From: a virus
Strand: one strand, 5' to 3'
Length of the DNA: 64,000 bases
Virus record (IMG/VR): IMGVR_UViG_3300045988_034415
Location: 82,807-146,806 of that record
A program made the position numbers and the translations under genes. The stretch's first letter is position 1, and every line of letters begins with the position of its first letter. Shown here piece by piece: positions 24,555 through 35,531 of this stretch. The notes below the pieces were generated by a model. It did not search any database, had not been told where the DNA came from, and saw only the letters and a program-made list of their open reading frames with translations.

Positions 24555-24609
24555 GAATCTCAACTAAAACAGATACAAACTAACGTAGAATTATTAAACA
24601 ATAACAATC

Positions 24610-25000
24610 ATGACTTTAATTCAAAATGAAGACAACAAATGCCCTACCACTAAACAAGTGAATGACGCACTCAAGTCTATGGGGGGGGGTTCAGACCCTA
24701 GTTTTAACAACAAAAGATTTGATTCATCCAGGTAGAAGTAGTAATCTAGAGATTAACAGTGCTGATAGTGCTGTAATGGAGATTGTGAAGTCTAATATGA
24801 CAGACATGGTCCCATTTCAGTTACTGTATTATGGAGTATCTAATGGTACGCCAACATGTATTAGTGTGGCAATAGTCGGAATTCCAATAGCTAATTTGTT
24901 CACATTATACGTAAATGTAAATCAAAGTGGTTTACAGCACTTTAGCCTTAACAAAGGCTCCAATCAAAAGTGGATTGCTTCTACACTTAGTAATTCTTAA
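24610..25000 (+). CDS. G9-tract-disrupted gene: ATG 24610, frame shifts at G9 (24681-24689) into ORF 24662..25000
   Basis: Own translation: MTLIQNEDNKCPTTKQVNDALKSMGGG then stop at 24733 in register; the G8 or G11 register gives one continuous 129-aa ORF. Confidence 0.45.
24681..24689 (+). repeat. G9 homopolymer in the N-terminal Gly-Gly-Gly codons of gene 24610
   Basis: Read directly: tat ggggggggg ttcag. Confidence 0.95.
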
Positions 25001-25031
25001 CATTTAAGAATTAAAGTACATTAATCGCAGT

Positions 25032-25235
25032 ATGAGAAATTTTATATTTGACGTCTGGGTTTGGTCTAAAGCCAAACACTCCAGACTACTTAAGCAAATA
25101 AGGGTAAAGGCACTATCGTTTCCTTCAGACATGTTCTGTTTGAACGAAGCTGCTAAAGATGCAGATGTATCACCCTACATGAAATCAGATGAATTTGAAG
25201 TAACAATTGGTAATTTAAGAGAATATCAAGAATAA
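25032..25235 (+). CDS. hypothetical protein (67 aa)
   Basis: ORF track. Confidence 0.4.
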   Translation: MRNFIFDVWVWSKAKHSRLLKQIRVKALSFPSDMFCLNEAAKDADVSPYMKSDEFEVTIGNLREYQE

Positions 25236-25729
25236 TGGAAAGCACTAATGAATTAGTAACAGCAGCTGAAGCCAGAGCAGAAGGCTTGAGCTTAGACGGA
25301 GTTGCGAACAATAGATGCATTACTAAGCAACAGTTCAATGATAACCTACCGTCGGGGGGGGGTATTGCTGACGCTATAGATTTATTAAACGGTTCACTAG
25401 GCGGCAGCACCCTAATATTCTTTAATAACACTACTACAGACACTACAATGGGTATATCAATCATGAATATGTATGGTCAAAGCACATCGGCTACACCAGA
25501 TATTCCTGCTTCATCTATGGTGGTATACCCTATAGCAGGTGCTATAAGAAATATAGCTTTGTTTGGCAATAGTGTGATTGGAAGTAATACTTACGTAGCA
25601 TTCCTATTAAATAATGCAAAGAATATGAATTACTATTCTAATTATGAAACAGATAGACTTACTATAGGAACTAATCAGAATATGCCAGTACAGGGTCTAC
25701 TTGCCGTTATGTGTATAAACAATACATAG
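25235..25729 (+). CDS. hypothetical protein (164 aa) carrying an in-frame G9 tract; ends with TAG
   Basis: ORF track; ...NLPSGGGIADAIDLL over the G9 at 25354-25362. Confidence 0.5.
   Translation: MESTNELVTAAEARAEGLSLDGVANNRCITKQQFNDNLPSGGGIADAIDLLNGSLGGSTLIFFNNTTTDTTMGISIMNMYGQSTSATPDIPASSMVVYPIAGAIRNIALFGNSVIGSNTYVAFLLNNAKNMNYYSNYETDRLTIGTNQNMPVQGLLAVMCINNT
25354..25362 (+). repeat. G9 homopolymer (in frame, Gly-Gly-Gly)
   Basis: Read directly: ccgtcg ggggggggg tattg. Confidence 0.95.
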
Positions 25730-25741
25730 CAAGTATTTAAA

Positions 25742-26284
25742 ATGACAAATAAAATTGCAACAGAACAATATTTAATTAATTTAGCTGGTGGAGGTACAAA
25801 TACTCCAACCAAGTGTGCCACTAGAGATAGAGTAGAGTTCTTCGGACTTGAAACTAACGATAATTACGCTAATAATCAGTTAGTTAAGGAAGAGGATATA
25901 CAGTTGTCAACATTCCAGTATGACTTCAATATACATGTTTCAATAACTAACTCTGGGCTTACGTCTAAATCCTATGACTTTGTAGCAGATGTTTACATAG
26001 ATGGAGTTCCAGATGGGTTTATAACAATTCCTAGGTCTGGAACTCTAGACTATCAAGGGGCAACTTTCTTTGACAGAAACTTCCACTTTAATTTACCAAC
26101 TGATTTAACTAATGTCTCTAAATTATTGTTCACTGGATATTTCAGTACATACAGGGTGACTGTAGATGCAGATAATGTAACAAATAACGCAGTATGCCAA
26201 TCTGGGGTAACTACTGAAATACCAATAAATCAGGCATATATAGGAGGTGACACAGCTAATATTTCTATAAATGTAATTATATAA
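25742..26284 (+). CDS. hypothetical protein (180 aa); in frame with the upstream TAG-terminated ORF
   Basis: ORF track; the 12-nt linker has no stop. Confidence 0.5.
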   Translation: MTNKIATEQYLINLAGGGTNTPTKCATRDRVEFFGLETNDNYANNQLVKEEDIQLSTFQYDFNIHVSITNSGLTSKSYDFVADVYIDGVPDGFITIPRSGTLDYQGATFFDRNFHFNLPTDLTNVSKLLFTGYFSTYRVTVDADNVTNNAVCQSGVTTEIPINQAYIGGDTANISINVII

Positions 26285-26526
26285 TGAAGTTTGTAACATT
26301 CTTAAAGCAAGTATTCACATCCCACTCTGGCATATCATCTAAGAGACTCTGCGGAGTAGTAGGGTGGTTTGTCTGCTTGGGAGTGTTAATATACTGTGCA
26401 ATAAACGTAATTCAAGCCCCATTAATGATAGACACAGTCCTGTTGTGTTGTATGGGATTGCTTGGCATAGATTCAGTAACAGGAATATGGAAGAGATTCA
26501 CCAATAACGATAAATCGAATAAATAA
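26284..26526 (+). CDS. holin-like small membrane protein (80 aa, two TM helices)
   Basis: LCGVVGWFVCLGVLIYCAINVI and LLCCMGLLGIDSVTGIW hydrophobic helices, charged C-terminus; directly upstream of the SLT-domain gene. Confidence 0.35.
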   Translation: MKFVTFLKQVFTSHSGISSKRLCGVVGWFVCLGVLIYCAINVIQAPLMIDTVLLCCMGLLGIDSVTGIWKRFTNNDKSNK

Positions 26527-28778
26527 TGAAAGTAATACCTAAACTACAACAAGGAAACACCATAGAGTCCGATAATACTAAAGTAGTTAGGCCAGAAATT
26601 CATGAACCTATTAAAGCTAAACCTAAACAGTATTCCATTGTAGATTTAGGTGGAGAACCTTCTAATGATACCAGGTCAGCTGCTGAAAGAAATAGAGACT
26701 ATTGGCATCCTATTAAAGGAGCTAAAGCCAGATTCAGGGCTTCTATGTCCAATGAGACTAATCCTCTAGTTGGAATAGAAAGAACTATACTTCCCTCAGC
26801 AGCTGGCGCTGCATTAGTAACAACTCCAGCCGCTGTTGTAGGAGGAGCTTTAGGTAATATGACTGTGGATAAGCTTACCGGGGGCTGGGGTAACTGGTTG
26901 GAAGATAAAACTGGCATTCCGTCCGAAATTGGAATTTATACTAATCCAGGAGCTTGGTATGGTGGTGCTAAAGGATATAAGATTGGAAAGGACAAGTTAA
27001 TAACTAAATCAATTAAAGGTGACGCTGACTTAGCTTGGAATCCTATTAACAAGAATCATTGGATATTTAATAAGGAAGCAAGGACTCCTTCTAATATAGC
27101 AATGGCAACAGCTAACAGAATTACTCCATTTCTATCTAAGGTAGAGAAATTACCATTAAAAGTGGCTGCTTATAAAGCTGCCAAGAGAACTAACGGTAAT
27201 GCATCAGTAAGTTTGCAAGATATAAAAACAATGCCAGCCGACTACACAGGTTCTTCAATACTAGGTGGAGGAAATTTAGAAGGTAGGAATCTATTAGCTA
27301 AATATATATTTGATGAGAATCCAGTAGTTAAAAGAATGTTCTTTAATAAAGCTACTAGTAATATCAAACCTATTAGCCGTAATGAAGCAAGGAGAGGATT
27401 TAGTCATGGGGATAGATATGAGCAGCTTTATCCTGGAGTTCATAACAGAAGATACGAAATGAGTGCAGTAGTACCCTCTGGTAGACCTCTTAAGTTTGAG
27501 AATGTTACAAAGTTTACTGATTATGCTGGAAAGAATCCAATCGGCAAGGTTGTTGGTAAGGAGACTGAACCAGTAATGCGTATGGGAGATAAAGAGTTTA
27601 TGACCTTTAGGCAGCCAGGAACCGATTATATAGGTCCTATTGATGACGTTACTGGACACTTGGTTAAGTTTCAAATGAATAAGGGTAAGCTTAGACAGAC
27701 TTCTCAAGATATGTGGAAATTTAATCCTGCTGACTATGCTAAGAGGTGGAATGATTCTCCTAATACTGCTAACCAAGTTAGGCTTACTAAACAAGCTGCA
27801 TTAATGGATAAAGTAGGTCGTCCGTTTTTTATACTACAGCAATCTAATCCTATATGGATTGAAGGTAAGTCTGTTAGAAATCCAGAATTAGTAACTATGG
27901 CACATGGTGGAAGATTTGATTTTAAGAAGTCCCCTCTGTTAAAGAAACAAGAAGAGATTAACGGTAAAAGGGACATGCGCAAGAAGTTCATCAAATCAAG
28001 TCGCCCAACCTATAAGAAGCGAATCAAGAAAGCTCAACAAGGAATGAAGTTCGTAAGTTATAATCCAGTAAGTAATCCTACAATAGATTACACTGATATT
28101 ACTAATCCTATTAATCCATTTAGTGAGTATAATTATAATACAACTTACGATAAACCAGAGGCTTTAGTAGTACCAGTAAGAGATACTAATGAACCTGATG
28201 TAGTAGCTAATAATCCTACAGCAGAGCCAGTAATTAATAAGCCAGTAGCTAGTAAAGTTACATATACTCCTAAATCATATAAAGGATTAGCTGCATTTAA
28301 TAAGGCTTATGATGAAGTAGAAGCTAGTAATCCAGAAGCTAAGAAGTATAGGCAATTCCTTACTAAAATGGCAGAGCAGGAATCTGGATTTAATAGTGCA
28401 ATTCAGAATAGAGCAGGAGCACCTGCCTATGGCTATTTCCAATTCATGCAGGATGATAAGAAGTATAACAACATTAGACAGTATGCAGGTACGGATATAG
28501 AGACATTTAGAAATAATCCTAAGCTACAAATAGAAGCTGCAATTAGACTTGCCAAATCATTCGAGAAGGGATTCAGTAAAGAGGATTTGGAACTTGCTAA
28601 TAAGAATGGATATTCTACTTGGGGATTATTAGGTGGAGCTTGGTTAGCAGGTAATGGTGGTGTACGTAAGTTCTTAAGAGGACAAGGTAATCCTTCTGAT
28701 AGACATTGGAGTAAAGAAGGTAAAGGTACTGATGTAGCTACTAGGATTAAGGCATTTAATTTTAAGGAAGGTGGTTAG
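26526..28778 (+). CDS. 750-aa protein with C-terminal SLT lytic transglycosylase domain (virion-associated or lysis enzyme)
   Basis: Motif MAEQESGFNSAIQNRAGAPAYGYFQFMQ matches the SLT/GH23 core (ES...N..A....GA.G..Q.MQ); ends in TAG. Confidence 0.55.
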   Translation: MKVIPKLQQGNTIESDNTKVVRPEIHEPIKAKPKQYSIVDLGGEPSNDTRSAAERNRDYWHPIKGAKARFRASMSNETNPLVGIERTILPSAAGAALVTTPAAVVGGALGNMTVDKLTGGWGNWLEDKTGIPSEIGIYTNPGAWYGGAKGYKIGKDKLITKSIKGDADLAWNPINKNHWIFNKEARTPSNIAMATANRITPFLSKVEKLPLKVAAYKAAKRTNGNASVSLQDIKTMPADYTGSSILGGGNLEGRNLLAKYIFDENPVVKRMFFNKATSNIKPISRNEARRGFSHGDRYEQLYPGVHNRRYEMSAVVPSGRPLKFENVTKFTDYAGKNPIGKVVGKETEPVMRMGDKEFMTFRQPGTDYIGPIDDVTGHLVKFQMNKGKLRQTSQDMWKFNPADYAKRWNDSPNTANQVRLTKQAALMDKVGRPFFILQQSNPIWIEGKSVRNPELVTMAHGGRFDFKKSPLLKKQEEINGKRDMRKKFIKSSRPTYKKRIKKAQQGMKFVSYNPVSNPTIDYTDITNPINPFSEYNYNTTYDKPEALVVPVRDTNEPDVVANNPTAEPVINKPVASKVTYTPKSYKGLAAFNKAYDEVEASNPEAKKYRQFLTKMAEQESGFNSAIQNRAGAPAYGYFQFMQDDKKYNNIRQYAGTDIETFRNNPKLQIEAAIRLAKSFEKGFSKEDLELANKNGYSTWGLLGGAWLAGNGGVRKFLRGQGNPSDRHWSKEGKGTDVATRIKAFNFKEGG

Positions 28779-28891
28779 TTAAATATCAAGAACCTGCACA
28801 ACCTATTAATAGACGTGATGCAATTAGAGACTATAGACCTAATATTCCGAATAGAATTAGAAGGGCTACCCCTGCTGAACATATTCAGTCC

Positions 28892-29935
28892 ATGATAAAC
28901 ATATATGGGCAATCCGAACAGCCTATAGTAACCTCTGATGCTAAAAGTCCTTGGCAGCATCAACAAGCACATGAAGCAGCTAGTAAAGGATATGATGATT
29001 ATATGCAAGCAAAGAAGTATGAAGAAGGTTTGCATAATTTAAATGGAATCCTTACCTTTACAGACTATGCTACACTAGCAACAGGATTAGGTAGTTTACT
29101 TAGTAAGGGAGTTAGTTATGCTGGTAAGAGATTAATAAAGAAGGAAATTAGAAATGCAATGAGTACGTCCGGTAGTCCAATTAAGGGAAGTATAGCTAAG
29201 TTTAATATTAGTAAGGAGTCTCTTCCTGACTATGCTAAACCAAATTGGCAGGGAGATGAATTAGCTCTTACTAAAGAACGTCTTGCTAATGGTGGATTTG
29301 ATAGACTAGAGAAGTTTAGTAAGTATAGTGGAGAGAAGGCAGAACAGTTTAGAAATGTAACAGGTACAGGTTATAGAGATTTCTATCCATTTGAGAATGA
29401 CTTCGGTAAGACATATAGGCAGTATTTATTAGATTCCCAACCAGCTAAGGGAACTCGTGCTGATTTCAAAGTTAATAAAGAAGTTGCAGCATTCTCTGAC
29501 AGAACTCAAAATGTCTATACTACCATATTAGATGATGTTCCTGATAGATTTAAGAATCCTCAATATAGAACTACCACAGAAGCACATGAATTTGCACACT
29601 TTGCATTTAATCCACAAAGAAGACCACCTCTAGATGTATATAACCCTCCCTTAACAAATCCGCATAGGGAGTATTTATTAGGATTAAAAGATAGGAATGA
29701 ATATGGTACAGAATTGACAGCTAGAGGTACTCAAATTAAGAACTACTTTGGGTTAGATAAAGACAAACCAATTACAGAGGATATGCTTAAATATGCAGCG
29801 GACAACTATGTTAAGGATAAAGGATTTGATAATAATATGACAGATTTCTTCTCTGGAATTAAGAATTACAAAGAAATGGCTAAGTGGTTATCAGAGTTAT
29901 CCCCTATGTTAGTCCTTCCACTATTAAATTATTAA
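28892..29935 (+). CDS. zincin-like metallopeptidase (HEFAH motif), 347 aa; frame open upstream to 28766
   Basis: EAHEFAHFAF (HExxH); its reading frame is open from 28766 and overlaps the last 13 nt of the SLT gene in the -1 frame. Confidence 0.5.
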   Translation: MINIYGQSEQPIVTSDAKSPWQHQQAHEAASKGYDDYMQAKKYEEGLHNLNGILTFTDYATLATGLGSLLSKGVSYAGKRLIKKEIRNAMSTSGSPIKGSIAKFNISKESLPDYAKPNWQGDELALTKERLANGGFDRLEKFSKYSGEKAEQFRNVTGTGYRDFYPFENDFGKTYRQYLLDSQPAKGTRADFKVNKEVAAFSDRTQNVYTTILDDVPDRFKNPQYRTTTEAHEFAHFAFNPQRRPPLDVYNPPLTNPHREYLLGLKDRNEYGTELTARGTQIKNYFGLDKDKPITEDMLKYAADNYVKDKGFDNNMTDFFSGIKNYKEMAKWLSELSPMLVLPLLNY

Positions 29936-29939
29936 GGTT

Positions 29940-30413
29940 ATGATAAAGTTTAGTAAAGGTATATATCCAGACCACCCAACAGCTTTCATGTTCACAGGTT
30001 CTAATGAATTAGTAGTAGATTTAGATGAGCAAAACTTGAAAGTCTACTACTGGTGTTTATTTAGAAATAGAACTGTTAATAATAAGAAGTATGTTAGTAA
30101 GTATAGCTCACTAAAGGAGTTGAGAGAAGATATCTACGGTGAATGTTACTTCGCTCATCAATTCTATTATGATAAAGTATTGTTTAAGGATATTTACAAA
30201 CAGTTGGATAAGCAGCTACTACTTAGTAAGATTAATGATATGATAGCTAAGTATGGTAACATGATAGTAATAAATGACCGTGCTATATGCATTAAAACTG
30301 ATGAAGATATAAGACCTTACGATTATGTCAAGAACCTGTGTCCAGATAAAGAGGTGCTGTCATTTGACACATTAGAGAGAATATATGAACTAGGACTATG
30401 GGAGAATACATAA
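29940..30413 (+). CDS. hypothetical protein (157 aa)
   Basis: ORF track. Confidence 0.5.
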   Translation: MIKFSKGIYPDHPTAFMFTGSNELVVDLDEQNLKVYYWCLFRNRTVNNKKYVSKYSSLKELREDIYGECYFAHQFYYDKVLFKDIYKQLDKQLLLSKINDMIAKYGNMIVINDRAICIKTDEDIRPYDYVKNLCPDKEVLSFDTLERIYELGLWENT

Positions 30414-30517
30414 TATCAGTGTCTCTTACTAATAGGAGGAATGAATTATGAGAAGATTTAATAAATATGGATTTGGTACAACAGCTCCAGCAATTATAAA
30501 TAATAGAGAGTAATATT

Positions 30518-30784
30518 ATGGAAGAATATCCTTATACAGAGGTTGTAGACGGTAAAGAGTACACCTATATTAATATGGGTACGTACTATGTAACTAACTT
30601 AGAGACTGGAGACAGAAGACTTGTACAGAGAGAAGTGCCATTCTTATTCGATGATGAGTATGATACAGGTGTAAAAGATGAAGATGATACTGATTGCTTA
30701 ACTGGGCATGAAGAGATTCTTAACCCATTTAAAGCAGAATATGATGAGAATGGTAAGGAGATATTTATACCTAAAACCAAATGA
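30518..30784 (+). CDS. small acidic protein (88 aa)
   Basis: ORF track; strongly acidic (DDEYDTGVKDEDDTD). Confidence 0.45.
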   Translation: MEEYPYTEVVDGKEYTYINMGTYYVTNLETGDRRLVQREVPFLFDDEYDTGVKDEDDTDCLTGHEEILNPFKAEYDENGKEIFIPKTK

Positions 30785-30797
30785 AGAAATAAATACA

Positions 30798-31883
30798 ATG
30801 AGTAGAATAGTAACACAAAGTAAATTAAACGAATTAACAGGTAAGAATATAGATTACGGGAAGGGGGGGGGTTATTGTCCTCACTACCAAATCATAGTTA
30901 GTCTCTGGGGTAGCGTAGTTGCGTCTAGTAACTACCAGCCAAATCAATTAGTTAAAGAAGAAGATATAGTTGTAGACAAAGACCTATTCCTTATTAATGC
31001 GGAGACAGGTAGTTTATACTTTGCTGGCGGTGGTACCTATGCTCAAATTCCAGCTATAGACGGCCATGAGGATTTTATGTACATAGCTGGAGGAGGTGAA
31101 GCAATTGGAGCATTGTCTGTGCTTGGAGGATTGTATGTAGTTAATCAGTCTACCAAACAGTGGGAATTAAAATACAAAGATACTGTAAGAGCTTATAGTT
31201 ATGCTCGCTTGGCTAGGTTCTCTACTGGCTGGGTATTTTATAAGGGAGCAGGAGGAGACGGTAAGAACTATGTTATTATAGTGTATGATGACGGTACAGT
31301 AAAGGAGCGTAGTGTTGTAGGCCCAGTCAGCAGCATATCAACTGGGCCTTATGATTACTGCTGTGTTGGGGCATCATATCAGGGAGGAGCTAGAATATAT
31401 ACCTTCTTGGCTACATCTGTACCAGATTCTCTTACTTATTATACTCCTGGAATGTTTACACCAAGTGCAGTAATACAAGGGTTTCATTCTTCGCCAAGAA
31501 GTGTAGTATATAGCACTACTAGTAATTATACATACGTTAGTGCTAATCCAACTGGAACTCAATGGACTGCTGCAACCACTAGACCACAACTAACAGGTTT
31601 GACTAAAGGATTGTATGTAAATGAAGCTAGGACTAATACATTTATGCTTATAGGAAATAATATGAAGAGTGTGTCTACAGATGGGGGTAATAATTGGACT
31701 ACATCTACACTAGGTGAATATACTCTTACTGATTTAATATATGTAGATTCAAATTGGTATGCAATTGGTTCGAATAAAGCTAAAAGACTCCTATTGCAGA
31801 ATACAGCTTCTACATTTGACCAAAGTAATAAAATACTTGACTTGCCTGACTATTCTAGCCAAGTAATTAAAATTAGTACATAA
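30798..31883 (+). CDS. hypothetical protein (~361 aa) with an in-frame G9 tract near the N-terminus; start moved to ATG 30798
   Basis: The track ORF 30708.. overlaps the upstream gene by 77 nt; MSRIVTQSKLNE start at 30798 avoids the overlap; GKGGGYCPHYQ over G9 30863-30871. Confidence 0.5.
   Translation: MSRIVTQSKLNELTGKNIDYGKGGGYCPHYQIIVSLWGSVVASSNYQPNQLVKEEDIVVDKDLFLINAETGSLYFAGGGTYAQIPAIDGHEDFMYIAGGGEAIGALSVLGGLYVVNQSTKQWELKYKDTVRAYSYARLARFSTGWVFYKGAGGDGKNYVIIVYDDGTVKERSVVGPVSSISTGPYDYCCVGASYQGGARIYTFLATSVPDSLTYYTPGMFTPSAVIQGFHSSPRSVVYSTTSNYTYVSANPTGTQWTAATTRPQLTGLTKGLYVNEARTNTFMLIGNNMKSVSTDGGNNWTTSTLGEYTLTDLIYVDSNWYAIGSNKAKRLLLQNTASTFDQSNKILDLPDYSSQVIKIST
30863..30871 (+). repeat. G9 homopolymer (in frame, Gly-Gly-Gly)
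   Basis: Read directly: cggg aa ggggggggg ttattg. Confidence 0.95.
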
Positions 31884-31897
31884 CAGGTTGATATAAT

Positions 31898-31945
31898 AAA
31901 GCCCGAGCCTAGTAATTAAACTAAGTTCGGGCTTTGTTGTTTATA
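31898..31945. terminator. bidirectional intrinsic terminator between convergent genes
   Basis: aaagcccga (31898-31906) pairs with tcgggcttt (31927-31935); A-run on the left and T-run (gttgtttat) on the right. Confidence 0.5.
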
Positions 31946-32065
31946 ATAAGATTCCGTCTCGGTAAGTGAGAATACGTCAGAGCACACTGTCGTAGACCAC
32001 CAAGACGAAGATGTAAAAACTATCTTAGGCTTTGTGCCTAGCATCTACTGGCTGGTATCAATTTA

Positions 32066-32920
32066 TTATATAGCTGTAGTGTCTATAGAGAATGTCACGT
32101 ACCACCAATATAAATCATCTGCATTATCTATCCCAACTTCTAGTAGCTGTGACCAATTTACTCCTTTATATTTCCTTAAGTTTTTAAGCACATTTAGAAC
32201 ATCTTCCATAGAATTAATAATACATCCTTCAGCCCCATTTGTTCCATTGCTAATTGTCATATAAACTTGTAATTTAGATTTACCTCTAGGAACAACGGCA
32301 AATGTTTCATAATGGTCTTTTATGTTCAAAATAATATCTTCTATATGTTCTAGAACATTGGCTTGTAAGGGTTCGCCAGTCAGGTTACACATTCTTAAGC
32401 CTTTGGGGGTTCTTTCATAATATAAATGCTTTAAGGACCCAAGTGTATCATACCAAGTTCCAGAGTTAAACAGTTTAATTACTTGTTTACGTTCCTCCTC
32501 ATTATAAGGACTCCACCTATTCCCAAATCCTCTACTGGTTCTATCATTGTATGTTTCTGTTCCCGATTGTACTATATAGTCAATGATATCATCCAAATTA
32601 GATTCTATTATTTCAGTAGCGTAGTCTAAGGGATACTTTCCGTCAACTACTTTAGTAGTATCAGCCTCAAGAATGAGATATTCTTCATGCGAGAACAATA
32701 GCTCTCTGGTTTCGGAAGTAGAGAATATGCAGGCATTTGTGTCAAATAGAAAGCTGTCAGCCTGATGTTTTACCCCTGTTAGACAGTCAATACAGAATTG
32801 TTTTATCTTATCTCTTTGTGCCTTTAGTGATGATGCTATATCATTACAATTGAACTGTAAATTTATAGATTGCATATCAAAGTAAAGGATTAGCCATTTA
32901 TTATACTCCTCATTTATCAT
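32066..32920 (-). CDS. hypothetical protein (284 aa)
   Basis: ORF track. Confidence 0.5.
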   Translation of the reverse strand: MINEEYNKWLILYFDMQSINLQFNCNDIASSLKAQRDKIKQFCIDCLTGVKHQADSFLFDTNACIFSTSETRELLFSHEEYLILEADTTKVVDGKYPLDYATEIIESNLDDIIDYIVQSGTETYNDRTSRGFGNRWSPYNEEERKQVIKLFNSGTWYDTLGSLKHLYYERTPKGLRMCNLTGEPLQANVLEHIEDIILNIKDHYETFAVVPRGKSKLQVYMTISNGTNGAEGCIINSMEDVLNVLKNLRKYKGVNWSQLLEVGIDNADDLYWWYVTFSIDTTAI

Positions 32921-32926
32921 AGTTCA

Positions 32927-33208
32927 TCAATCAAAACTTCCAAAACTAGCTACTAAGCTCATTGGTATGTGTACTGTATCTTTTACTCTACGAGTACCGT
33001 CCTCATTACAATGATTCTCAATACCTCTTCCCAATATTATTGATTTATCATCCATATATGCCAAGTAGCCCACTGTGGTTATCAAATTCTCATCTGGGCA
33101 TTTTCCTAGTATATGTCCTCCACGCAATACGTATCTATCGTCCCAATGAACCCACATAGGTTCTCCTACTTCATATCCTAGTTTCTGTACATTTAATTTA
33201 TTATCCAT
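32927..33208 (-). CDS. hypothetical protein (93 aa)
   Basis: ORF track. Confidence 0.45.
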   Translation of the reverse strand: MDNKLNVQKLGYEVGEPMWVHWDDRYVLRGGHILGKCPDENLITTVGYLAYMDDKSIILGRGIENHCNEDGTRRVKDTVHIPMSLVASFGSFD

Positions 33209-33209
33209 A

Positions 33210-33890
33210 TTAACTACCTACAAGTATTTTAACATTACCAGTCTCTATATCGAGAGTAGCTTTCTCAAGCCATAAATCTTCTATATGATGTCCCCATATT
33301 CCATACTTACCTGGATTCTCCTTCTCTTCTTCGTAAATCCTTCTATATGCAAGAACTATTTCATTTATCAAATCATTCAAAACGATACATTTAACAGTGA
33401 ATGTGTATGGATTCTTTAACGGATAATTAATAGTTACGTTTACTGTATGATTCTTGAAATAGCTATCAACATGACCAAAGAGGAAAATTCCACAGTCAAT
33501 GGAGTATTTATGAATCTTTATGTTAACACCTTTAGGAAGTAATTCGCGCTCCCTCTCTATTGTGAATTTAGACGGAAGTCTGTTTATTACTTCCTGCATA
33601 TCAAAGTCCTTGTCACCATATACACCTATTCCAGATTCTTTATGCTGAACATACACATAATACATTAGCCTATATTGATTGTCTCCTACACAAACATCTA
33701 GCTCATGCATACTAATATCATAATCTGGATTTAATTCCCTAATTTCATTTAGCCTATCGTTATCATTAAAGATTGCACAGATGGTTTGGTCCGCTTGTTC
33801 CTCCGTTATCAAATTGTTCTCTAGTAATTTGCCTACTAGGACAGGTACTATCTCCTCCACTTCATCAACATTAATTAATCGCTTTCCCAT
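33210..33890 (-). CDS. hypothetical protein (226 aa)
   Basis: ORF track. Confidence 0.5.
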   Translation of the reverse strand: MGKRLINVDEVEEIVPVLVGKLLENNLITEEQADQTICAIFNDNDRLNEIRELNPDYDISMHELDVCVGDNQYRLMYYVYVQHKESGIGVYGDKDFDMQEVINRLPSKFTIERERELLPKGVNIKIHKYSIDCGIFLFGHVDSYFKNHTVNVTINYPLKNPYTFTVKCIVLNDLINEIVLAYRRIYEEEKENPGKYGIWGHHIEDLWLEKATLDIETGNVKILVGS

Positions 33891-34084
33891 TCTTCTTCTA
33901 ATGTATTATATAATTTAATAAAATCTTCTCCTTTATATTCACATACACATTCATTATCCTTATTAAAGATAGTAAGCATGTGCATATCCTTAGATTGTCC
34001 ATTGTCTACATAAGAATACATCCCGTGTACCAATACGTATTCGGGATGTTTCTCATTCCAGTTATTTACAAGTTCCTTCATCAC
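33875..34084 (-). CDS. hypothetical protein (69 aa)
   Basis: ORF track; overlapping start/stop arrangement. Confidence 0.4.
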   Translation of the reverse strand: MMKELVNNWNEKHPEYVLVHGMYSYVDNGQSKDMHMLTIFNKDNECVCEYKGEDFIKLYNTLEEEWESD

Positions 34085-34322
34085 TAAGTGTTATTCCATT
34101 ACTAGCATAAGATATAAATGTACCTGTGTCATATGGTCTCCAGCCACTATTATCTCTACGTATAGTAGTTGTCTGTCCTACGTTAAATTGTGAAATCTCT
34201 ACTATGTTATCAAGAACTCTAAATAAGTCCTCTATTGATAAGTTTGGAAGTATCTGATGTAAATTCTCTAATGTCTTTCTAACGTCAATCATAATAGTAT
34301 ATTTTAGCAAATTGTACATCAC
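34062..34322 (-). CDS. hypothetical protein (86 aa)
   Basis: ORF track. Confidence 0.4.
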   Translation of the reverse strand: MMYNLLKYTIMIDVRKTLENLHQILPNLSIEDLFRVLDNIVEISQFNVGQTTTIRRDNSGWRPYDTGTFISYASNGITLSDEGTCK

Positions 34323-34524
34323 CTATACTAATATTAGGCAGTAATACTTTATATAGTTCTGTAGATTCAAATGTATCTTTATATTCCCTAGGAACTAACA
34401 GAGTATCAACATGATGTCCTCTAGATATTCTAGCTAGATAGGAAATTTTACTATCATCAAAGTCTGTAAGTTCCAACATAATGGCATTATGATGCCTAGG
34501 ACAGTTCCCACTAAGTATTATCAT
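34285..34524 (-). CDS. hypothetical protein (79 aa)
   Basis: ORF track. Confidence 0.4.
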   Translation of the reverse strand: MIILSGNCPRHHNAIMLELTDFDDSKISYLARISRGHHVDTLLVPREYKDTFESTELYKVLLPNISIGDVQFAKIYYYD

Positions 34525-34527
34525 AAT

Positions 34528-34689
34528 TACTTCTCCTGTAGTAAGATTCTCATCTCTTCCTTCCAGTTCTTATACCACTGTTCATTAATAAGGTCTTCTG
34601 ATTCAATTAATTCAATCAAATCCTTAGTGCCATTATGAATTTGGCTACATAAATACTGTGCTAATTGGTTCTTTAATTCATCCATAATT
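34528..34689 (-). CDS. small hypothetical protein (53 aa, below the track cutoff)
   Basis: Own translation MDELKNQLAQYLCSQIHNGTKDLIELIESEDLINEQWYKNWKEEMRILLQEK fills the gap between flanking genes. Confidence 0.3.
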
Positions 34690-34690
34690 A

Positions 34691-34888
34691 TTAGTCTTTA
34701 GTTTTAACATAAAGTTGGCAATGGCAAGTCCCTTCTTCCATTTCCCTAAACTCTTTACACATACATACTGTATCTTCATCTCTTACTAAAGAGCATGGAC
34801 AATACTTCTTACCATACTTCTCTTTATTCCTTTTAAGTCCTGCTAGGACTGTTTCCTTTACTTCTTTATTATCAGTTACTTTAATCAT
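34691..34888 (-). CDS. zinc-ribbon-like small protein (65 aa)
   Basis: CPCS...CMCK...CHCQ cysteine pattern. Confidence 0.45.
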   Translation of the reverse strand: MIKVTDNKEVKETVLAGLKRNKEKYGKKYCPCSLVRDEDTVCMCKEFREMEEGTCHCQLYVKTKD

Positions 34889-35531
34889 TGCGCTGACGCT
34901 GTATACAGTTCTATGTTTAGGTCTATTTCCCCACCAGTAAATCTAAATACTCTACCAGAATTATTCATTTTGACCCACCTTCCAGATGAAGGGAGTGTTA
35001 CTCCTTCTGCCCAATTCTCAGATTGAGAATCTACTGCTAATGTAATTTGAGACACTTGCCTAAGCATCACGTATCCCTCAAAACGTATCCAAACAGGTGT
35101 ATTATATGGGTCTTGGTTAGGAAGTGCTAATTTCTCTAAGTAATATTTAAGAGGATTTGCTAAAGTCTTAGTGTACGTTCGTTCTCCTTGCTCTAATCTT
35201 GGAGTAATTGTAAAGTACATAGTATTGTCAGAATACTCAAACGGCTCTCCATTCACTGAACTCTCATTAACAAATGAGAAACGTACTCTAAATTGCCGTA
35301 TATTATTAATTGGCATATCCTGCCAACCATAATGAAGGATTACATTTGGAGCAGTTATAGCTGCCTCTATACCTTCTAACTCTACTAACTGATTATCAGT
35401 ATAACTAAATCCACTTTTAATCTGACATCCTAATTCAAGTGCTCTAGCTTTAGTACAGCACTTATTATCAATTACCGAGAGAGTCCCCCCCCCATAGTCT
35501 TAGCTTCTAATTCTGTTGCTATTTTACTCAT
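34885..35531 (-). CDS. G9-tract-disrupted gene: N-terminal 19 codons (35475-35531) out of register with ORF 34885..35316
   Basis: Minus-strand ATG at 35531 (ATGAGTAA overlap with the upstream stop) reads MSKIATELEAKTMGGGLSR*; one extra G (G10) fuses it in frame to MPINNIRQFRV... giving ~215 aa. Confidence 0.45.
35485..35493 (-). repeat. G9 homopolymer (C9 on the plus strand) in the N-terminal Gly-Gly-Gly codons
   Basis: Read directly: gagagt ccccccccc atagt. Confidence 0.95.

Follow-up and report, generated by a model that had tools for sequence, protein, structure and literature searches.

Candidate poly-G contingency loci in a paralogous gene family of a crAss-like phage

Homopolymer contingency loci and the four tracts of the window

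Hypermutable poly-G tracts have been described in the Fletchervirus phages of Campylobacter (Sorensen et al., 2021, as cited in PMC8713573 and PMC12823448). According to these citing papers, the tracts are G-homopolymers of about nine residues inside phage open reading frames (ORFs), several tract genes and up to four receptor-binding proteins occur per genome, and frameshifting switches the genes ON or OFF, such that mixed progeny arise. Here we describe four runs of nine guanines (G9) in a stretch of viral DNA of 64,000 nucleotides (nt), positions 82,807 to 146,806 of the IMG/VR record IMGVR_UViG_3300045988_034415 (hereafter the window), which are very probably hypermutable contingency loci. 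They resemble the Fletchervirus tracts in their length, in lying within phage ORFs and in affecting several genes of one genome, and the same switching with mixed progeny is proposed for them, although the evidence is comparative and metagenomic here and experimental in Fletchervirus. Unlike Fletchervirus, the window is provisionally assigned to a crAss-like lineage of the Zeta group with presumed Bacteroidales hosts, neither PHROGs nor the deposited phage records contain a sequence match to the tract proteins, and their role as receptor-binding proteins is putative. Bacteroidales are best known for phase variation by DNA inversion and not for poly-G tracts.

Poly-G contingency genes also occur in the bacterium Campylobacter jejuni, where Bayliss and colleagues reportedly treated them in 2012. 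The tract tables in PMC8713573 give N-terminal tracts of G8-G11, with G9 the commonest and with ON/OFF states that vary among isolates. The modal G9 is independent of the reading frame both in C. jejuni and in the tracts described here, but the C. jejuni genes encode bacterial surface-modifying enzymes, whereas those of the window are viral and are presumably replicated by the phage polymerase. For T2, T4 and other phages, contingency loci with reversible homopolymer frameshifts have been proposed to serve as bet-hedging (Gomez, Barrick and Waters, 2025 preprint, PMC12633550). The T-even genomes contain more than 100 short runs (at least six nt) each, spread over all gene classes, and the two that have been characterised are A runs (PMC12633550). 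By contrast, the window has no run longer than six save the four long G runs, all of which lie in one paralogous family.

Diversity-generating retroelements are known in Zeta and Epsilon crAss-like phages (PMC12386605, PMC11054128), and thus represent targeted diversification of presumed host-interaction proteins within the same broad phage group. However, a retroelement rewrites codons by means of a reverse transcriptase and a template repeat, whereas the tracts would act as ON/OFF switches through their length. At word size 7 and E 0.01, none of the four genes has a further, template-like copy within the 64 kb, nor was a reverse-transcriptase match found among the proteins scanned, and on this evidence the genes do not have the features of retroelement targets. 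In two dedicated genome papers on Zeta and Epsilon crAss-like phages, neither poly-G or other homopolymers nor frameshifts or slippage were found to be mentioned, and a search of the literature on crAss-like phages and phase variation returned host-side phase variation only and no poly-G contingency loci in these phages. With no crAss-like precedent in the literature searched, the tracts would extend a known mechanism to a phage lineage, a host phylum and a protein family that are all new for it; the novelty claimed in a preliminary description of this DNA therefore holds as far as that literature reaches.

The tracts and the genes that carry them, together with a tract-free paralogue (gene E), are as follows, where ON and OFF refer to an open or broken reading frame.

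Gene A, 24610-25000, plus strand: 129-130 amino acids (aa), open only at G8 or G11 upon translation with altered tract lengths
Tract A, 24681-24689, plus strand: G9, OFF here, Gly25-27 of gene A
Gene B, 25235-25729, plus strand: 164 aa, open at G9, with an N-terminal module, the tract, and a C-terminal domain with hot-spot amino-acid variation
Tract B, 25354-25362, plus strand: G9, ON here, Gly41-43 of gene B
Gene E, 25742-26284, plus strand: 180 aa, tract-free paralogue with the same N-terminal module
Gene C, 30798-31883, plus strand: 361 aa, open at G9, with the N-terminal module in residues 1-60 and a predicted 7-bladed beta-propeller in the rest
Tract C, 30863-30871, plus strand: G9 followed by T, ON here, Gly23-25 of gene C
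Gene D, 34885-35531, minus strand: 215 aa given a tract region of 10 nt (G10), with the N-terminal module and an immunoglobulin (Ig)-like beta-sandwich
Tract D, 35485-35493, minus strand: C9 on the plus strand and hence G9 on the coding strand, OFF here, Gly14-16 of gene D

All four runs are G on the coding strand, encode Gly-Gly-Gly and lie within codons 14-43. The preliminary description had reported the four exact G9 runs, their Gly-Gly-Gly coding and the frames of their genes (25235 and 30798 open at G9, 24610 requiring G8 or G11 and 35531 requiring G10), all of which were confirmed; its placement at codons ~13-40 was roughly right, the actual positions being Gly14-16 to Gly41-43. The claimed rarity of such runs was borne out as well: the G8 pattern has eight matches in the window (two per tract), compared with 0.22 ± 0.56 expected from dinucleotide-preserving shuffles, and no shuffle reached eight. 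All 16 matches to the G6 pattern, for which 4.8 were expected, fall within the four tracts. In this DNA of ~37% GC, no G or C run longer than five exists outside the tracts in the 64 kb, and no A or T run of the window exceeds six, whereas shuffles would give 28.4 ± 7.3 runs of at least seven. Since the four tracts are the sole long G/C runs and no A7 or T7 occurs, slippery runs appear to be avoided genome-wide except at these four sites. This purge of homopolymers suggests that slippery runs are strongly selected against, or else that the replicase slips unusually often. The related scaffold MT835470.1 extends over another 87 kb, in which no further tract was found. Tracts occur in four of the five paralogues and in no other gene of the window or of these 87 kb. 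The tracts are thus long, uninterrupted and over-represented runs within ORFs, as seen for homopolymer contingency loci.

At G9, gene A yields a peptide of 41 aa, while an ATG at 24662 opens an ORF of 112 aa in the downstream frame, and gene D yields a peptide of 19 aa. Gene C is in frame at G9 in the window because a T follows the run (G9+TTATTG, compared with G9/G10+TATTG in relatives), and it requires G10 in most relatives. Out-of-frame reading past the tracts stops after 4-20 codons and leads to no conserved alternative C-terminus. Two further observations concern the borders of these genes. The window lacks (at 24568-24576) a segment that separates a protease-like gene from gene A in MT835470.1 and most relatives (e.g. 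L001, 20570-20897); it measures 230-328 bp, is an ORF throughout and continues the upstream frame. At the 3′ end of gene D (34885-34960), the public gene calls P0057, P0051 and P0066 fuse gene D to a downstream small gene with a PF02943 match; in these calls the frame shifts at a short run of G (FTGGE to FTGGGN), which may be an assembly error or a second, weaker slippery site.

Length variation among relatives and its effect on the reading frame

The preliminary description had called for a comparison of tract lengths across related genomes. In total, 137 homologous alleles were collected from IMG/VR, ENA/JGI metagenomes and GenBank, and all comparisons rest on consensus assemblies. Scanning IMG/VR with the neighbouring 750-aa protein, with confirmation by tblastn, gave 70 loci, ~27 of which (protein at least ~74% identical) have homologues of the tract genes. 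Metagenomes scanned with the tract D flanks contributed another 45 independent contigs from the human gut, and GenBank contributed scaffold MT835470.1, which stems from human faeces (Mexico) and shares 98-99% identity with the window across 28 kb. The tracts are present in these relatives and vary from G6 to G11: the longest G run is six in 6 alleles, seven in 13, eight in 27, nine in 65, ten in 24 and eleven in two. Nine is the modal length in each of the four genes. The earlier statement that the tracts are exactly nine long is therefore true of the window, but nine is the mode of a distribution of 6-11 and not a design feature. By gene, tract A ranges over G6-G11 (n=31), as does tract B in 30 alleles; tract C is G8-G9 or interrupted (n=14), and 8-11 nt lie between the fixed flanks of tract D in 62 alleles.

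This polymorphism far exceeds that of the surrounding sequence. The four tracts differ in length in 36 of 60 allele comparisons, compared with 15 of 592 at 45 shorter homopolymers of the same region (G/C runs of 4-5 and A/T runs of 5-6), and 9 of these 15 differences represent one in-frame change from T6 to T3. At tract B, the two 25-nt flanks together have 0-2 mismatches in 24 relatives of the first set, while the run spans G6-G11. The clearest case is provided by two loci from separate metagenome assemblies (L014 and L015), which over 11,687 aligned nt have no mismatch and two gaps, both of them at tracts: tract A is 10 in one and 9 in the other, and so is tract B.

The frame is open in 50 of the 137 alleles and broken in 87, with ON states in 8 of 31 alleles of gene A, 14 of 30 of gene B, 2 of 14 of gene C and 26 of 62 of gene D. 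Correction of the tract alone restores a full-length ORF (~130, 164, 361 and 215 aa) in 45 of the 46 OFF alleles of the first set, and the corrected ORF of gene A is intact in 26 of 27 alleles of that set. Likewise, 36 of 41 contig-complete gene D alleles of the metagenome set, ON and OFF taken together, are full-length after correction. The frame is thus toggled by tract length while the rest of the ORF is preserved. Both states of gene D are common in public assemblies, as indicated by large clusters in a collection of 5.8 billion proteins: full-length calls of 215 aa form clusters of 1,150 and 1,636 members, and calls that start past the tract (166-167 aa and 143 aa) form clusters of 526, 1,253 and 1,337 members. 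A profile search with the N-terminal module additionally returned dozens of fragments of 40-100 aa that end soon after the frameshift. Together, the excess of length differences, the L014/L015 pair, the intact downstream ORFs and the two forms of gene D calls support the slipped-strand ON/OFF set that had been put forward at the outset.

Codon-aligned comparison downstream of the tracts gave ratios of nonsynonymous to synonymous polymorphism (pN/pS) of 0.58 for gene A, 0.37 for gene C and 0.31 for gene D, which indicates purifying selection on these three genes, and of 2.2 for gene B. The replacements in gene B cluster at about ten hot-spot positions (25363-25729, 24 unique alleles), e.g. N/Y/H/T, I/V/A/M, Y/H/L/C and T/N/I/V/F, while the rest is invariant. 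As the window contains no template-like repeat of gene B, this looks like ordinary diversifying selection rather than the action of a retroelement.

The mechanism that we propose starts with slippage of the polymerase on the G:C homopolymer during phage DNA replication, which would add or remove one base and could account for the observed lengths of 6-11. Each tract lies in the first 45 codons, within or just past the shared and apparently flexible N-terminal module, so that a change of one base truncates the predicted protein after 19-48 residues (OFF) or restores it (ON), whereas a change of three bases only adds or removes a glycine. The four genes would switch independently, such that one lineage could yield progeny with differing combinations of four accessory proteins.

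The gene family and the identity of the phage

Genes A, B, C, D and E share an N-terminal module of ~55 aa, roughly xKIATExEA..GG....NKCxTKxRA...G....Y..NQLV..eDI. The modules of C, D and E align directly, and the N-termini of A and B match the C/D/E module profile with an hhalign probability of 87% (E 3.7e-6). In this alignment, the tracts of C and D precede the NKCxTK motif, while those of A and B lie ~10-25 residues past it; with two non-homologous positions in the module, the tracts must have arisen at least twice. With clustering at 50% identity, an exhaustive profile search recovered 447 clusters that contain the module. Among the 150 listed, the module is at or near the N-terminus, the median protein has ~183 aa, and the C-terminal parts are unrelated. 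No module-bearing cluster found by the profile search carries an annotation, and InlB B-repeat domains are present on a few long module-bearing proteins. The AlphaFold2 (AF2) model of gene C has a mean predicted local distance difference test (pLDDT) score of 68.5, with 75-94 in the core, and Foldseek matched it to Ycf48 and other propellers of the PDB (E 6e-9).

The members of the family are also exchanged as units. In the public protein P0076, a chimera, the N-terminus of gene D is fused to the propeller of gene C. In some relatives (loci L008 and L028), C and D have traded places and orientations in the genome, and C and E share a stretch of 34 nt at the NQLVKEEDI junction; the paralogues thus shuffle as cassettes (30798-30977, 35358-35531). 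A common docking module with exchangeable binding domains would be the most economical reading of this arrangement. Conceivably, the module docks the proteins to a common partner, e.g. the virion, and the variable domains bind ligands on the host surface or elsewhere, a suggestion in which we place little confidence. Directly downstream of A, B and E (26284-28778), an 80-aa protein with hydrophobic, membrane-like stretches and a weak, sub-threshold match to the lambda holin (E 0.07) is followed by the 750-aa protein, which has a C-terminal SLT lytic transglycosylase domain. These two may form a lysis or virion-lysin pair.

TerL and portal match crAss-type PHROGs, and TerL is ~30% identical to that of many Crassvirales genomes. 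The window encodes 25 tRNA genes in a cluster (43447-63862), including a tRNA with a CUA anticodon (amber suppressor) at 50877-50949 that ARAGORN labels 'Pyl', and close relatives lie on contigs of 174-190 kb. At 58032-58135, ARAGORN calls overlapping tRNAs on opposite strands, Ser-GCT (plus) and Arg-TCG (minus), at least one of which is probably spurious. The Zeta crAss-like group (proposed Echekviridae) has genomes of ~155-190 kb, many tRNAs, often with suppressors, and 28-38% GC (PMC12386605). On TerL, portal, tRNAs, GC and the size of its relatives, the phage is provisionally placed in this group. The best-fitting Zeta subgroup has a CUA suppressor tRNA, ~35-37% GC and Bacteroides hosts, and no diversity-generating retroelement is listed for it (PMC12386605). 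The earlier guess of a Bacteroidota-infecting phage is consistent with the crAss-like TerL and the Zeta-group features, with the placement being provisional. In distant relatives (SLT-domain protein ~59% identical), neither the gene family nor tracts were found within 10 kb of the SLT gene.

Selection on the tracts, alternative explanations and implications

The neutral explanation holds that the tracts are mutational hot spots in dispensable genes, i.e. by-products of conserved Gly-Gly(-Gly) linkers without adaptive bet-hedging. The module consensus indeed has 'GG' at the tract site of C and D, the ON fractions follow the shared length distribution, and gene E has been lost through ordinary indels in some genomes. 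However, GGG makes up 8% of the glycine codons in the window, and among the 14 Gly-Gly-Gly positions in ORFs of at least 100 aa, the 12 outside the tracts are never coded by a homopolymer; these include the motif of gene E, which lacks a tract because its Gly-Gly-Gly is coded GGT GGA GGT. Furthermore, tracts without selection should be broken by substitutions, yet uninterrupted runs of at least eight persist in 118 of 137 alleles, in lineages down to 74% identity in the neighbouring protein. All other long runs have been purged from the genome, the downstream ORFs are intact with pN/pS below 1 in three of the four genes, and tracts arose at two positions of the module. The codon usage and persistence of the runs argue that the tracts are selected at the DNA level, and we consider the neutral explanation unlikely.

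A second alternative is programmed recoding, in which G9 would be a fixed slippery site for the RNA polymerase or the ribosome, so that the broken genes are still expressed and the variation of the DNA is incidental. Long homopolymers are sites of transcriptional slippage, G9 is modal in any frame, and two OFF genes of the window and several in relatives are exactly G9. Length 9 is ON only in gene B and in gene C of this window, and the ON fractions track the common length distribution, such that the modal G9 looks like a mutational equilibrium, as described for the tracts of C. jejuni. On the contingency-locus reading, run length would settle around nine Gs in any frame, as a mutational optimum, and point changes at the tract edges would reset the default. 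Such edge changes are observed: gene C of the window has G9+T, and many ON alleles of gene D are G9+A or A+G9; the default state thus seems to be tuned by tract-edge substitutions, the pattern being observed and the tuning being the cause we propose for it. The spread of in-frame edge substitutions (G9A in D, G9T in C) makes sense only if the frame of the DNA matters. In addition, site lengths of 6-11 are unlike a programmed site, gene A needs −1 and gene D +1 from the same G9, and the out-of-frame products end in 4-20 codons without a conserved alternative C-terminus. Neither a conserved length nor a second-frame product, as would mark programmed frameshifting or transcriptional slippage, was thus found, and recoding as the function of the tracts is very unlikely, while it may act as a leak that softens OFF states.

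The third alternative is homopolymer error in sequencing or assembly, with one true length and with the G6-G11 spread and the broken genes as noise. Differing tract lengths occur in contigs of about 17-18x, 24x and 122x coverage, and alleles interrupted by substitutions are found at the same tract sites, e.g. GGGGGGAGGGG, which is in frame, and GGGGGGAGGG, so that consensus error is unlikely to explain the variation. Although many metagenome contigs have 1-6x coverage, poly-G is error-prone on several platforms and the evidence comes entirely from consensus assemblies, an artefact is scarcely credible given six lengths that go beyond ±1, the interrupted and high-coverage alleles, the independent G9 at A and B in both the window and MT835470.1, the origin of the alleles from many projects with other homopolymers of the same contigs stable, and the genome-wide absence of runs of at least seven, which is a property of the sequence.

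Several observations weigh against the interpretation of the tracts as contingency loci that diversify host interaction. The ON fraction of 36% is near the prediction from the shared length distribution, and this match gives no sign of selection on the consensus state itself. Gene E is frameshifted by ordinary indels in four relatives: three (among L002, L006, L007 and L008) have in common that a 5-bp direct repeat (AGAGT AGAGT) is reduced by one copy, and one has a single-base deletion (CTCCAACC to CTCAACC), which indicates that the family is dispensable at least sometimes. The tail-fibre block is at 1-13 kb and does not include the tract genes. Searches of Pfam, PHROGs, NCBIfam and PDB sequences gave nothing significant for the four proteins, tblastn with gene D found no match among 50,697 phage records, and no homology of the tract-gene products to known receptor-binding proteins was found. 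The structural and profile check suggested earlier did return all-beta folds of a binding type, but no receptor-binding homologue, and the fold matches are generic (a 7-bladed beta-propeller for C, an Ig-like sandwich for D), i.e. compatible with binding and not diagnostic of it. Finally, we infer within-population length heterogeneity, switching rate and reversibility from consensus assemblies.

If the module docks and the C-terminal domains bind as suggested, switching would diversify the interaction with hosts that are themselves phase-variable. A tentative model, which we regard as possible rather than probable, is that this widespread Zeta-group lineage of the human gut combinatorially switches interchangeable host-binding modules that dock through the common N-terminal adaptor, with defaults tuned at the tract edges around a G9 equilibrium set by the polymerase. 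If true, the tracts would be the phage's equivalent of the phase-variable capsules of Bacteroidales, and would take the functional place of the diversity-generating retroelements known from sister lineages.

The persistence of crAss-like phages over years beside surface-switching Bacteroidales has so far been explained by phase-variable capsules on the side of the host or by diversity-generating retroelements in some phage lineages. Poly-G bet-hedging has so far been shown experimentally mainly in Campylobacter phages. Thousands of public assemblies contain split or truncated calls of these genes, so that annotation pipelines should read runs of G8-G11 in the lineage as switches and not as pseudogenes. 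In longitudinal viromes, tract states could be used as markers that evolve fast. Given how strongly homopolymers are purged across the genome, replication of the phage would seem to be unusually slippage-prone. Four independently switching genes would give up to 16 expression states, and would provide a phage-side bet-hedging mechanism in one of the commonest phage groups of the human gut.

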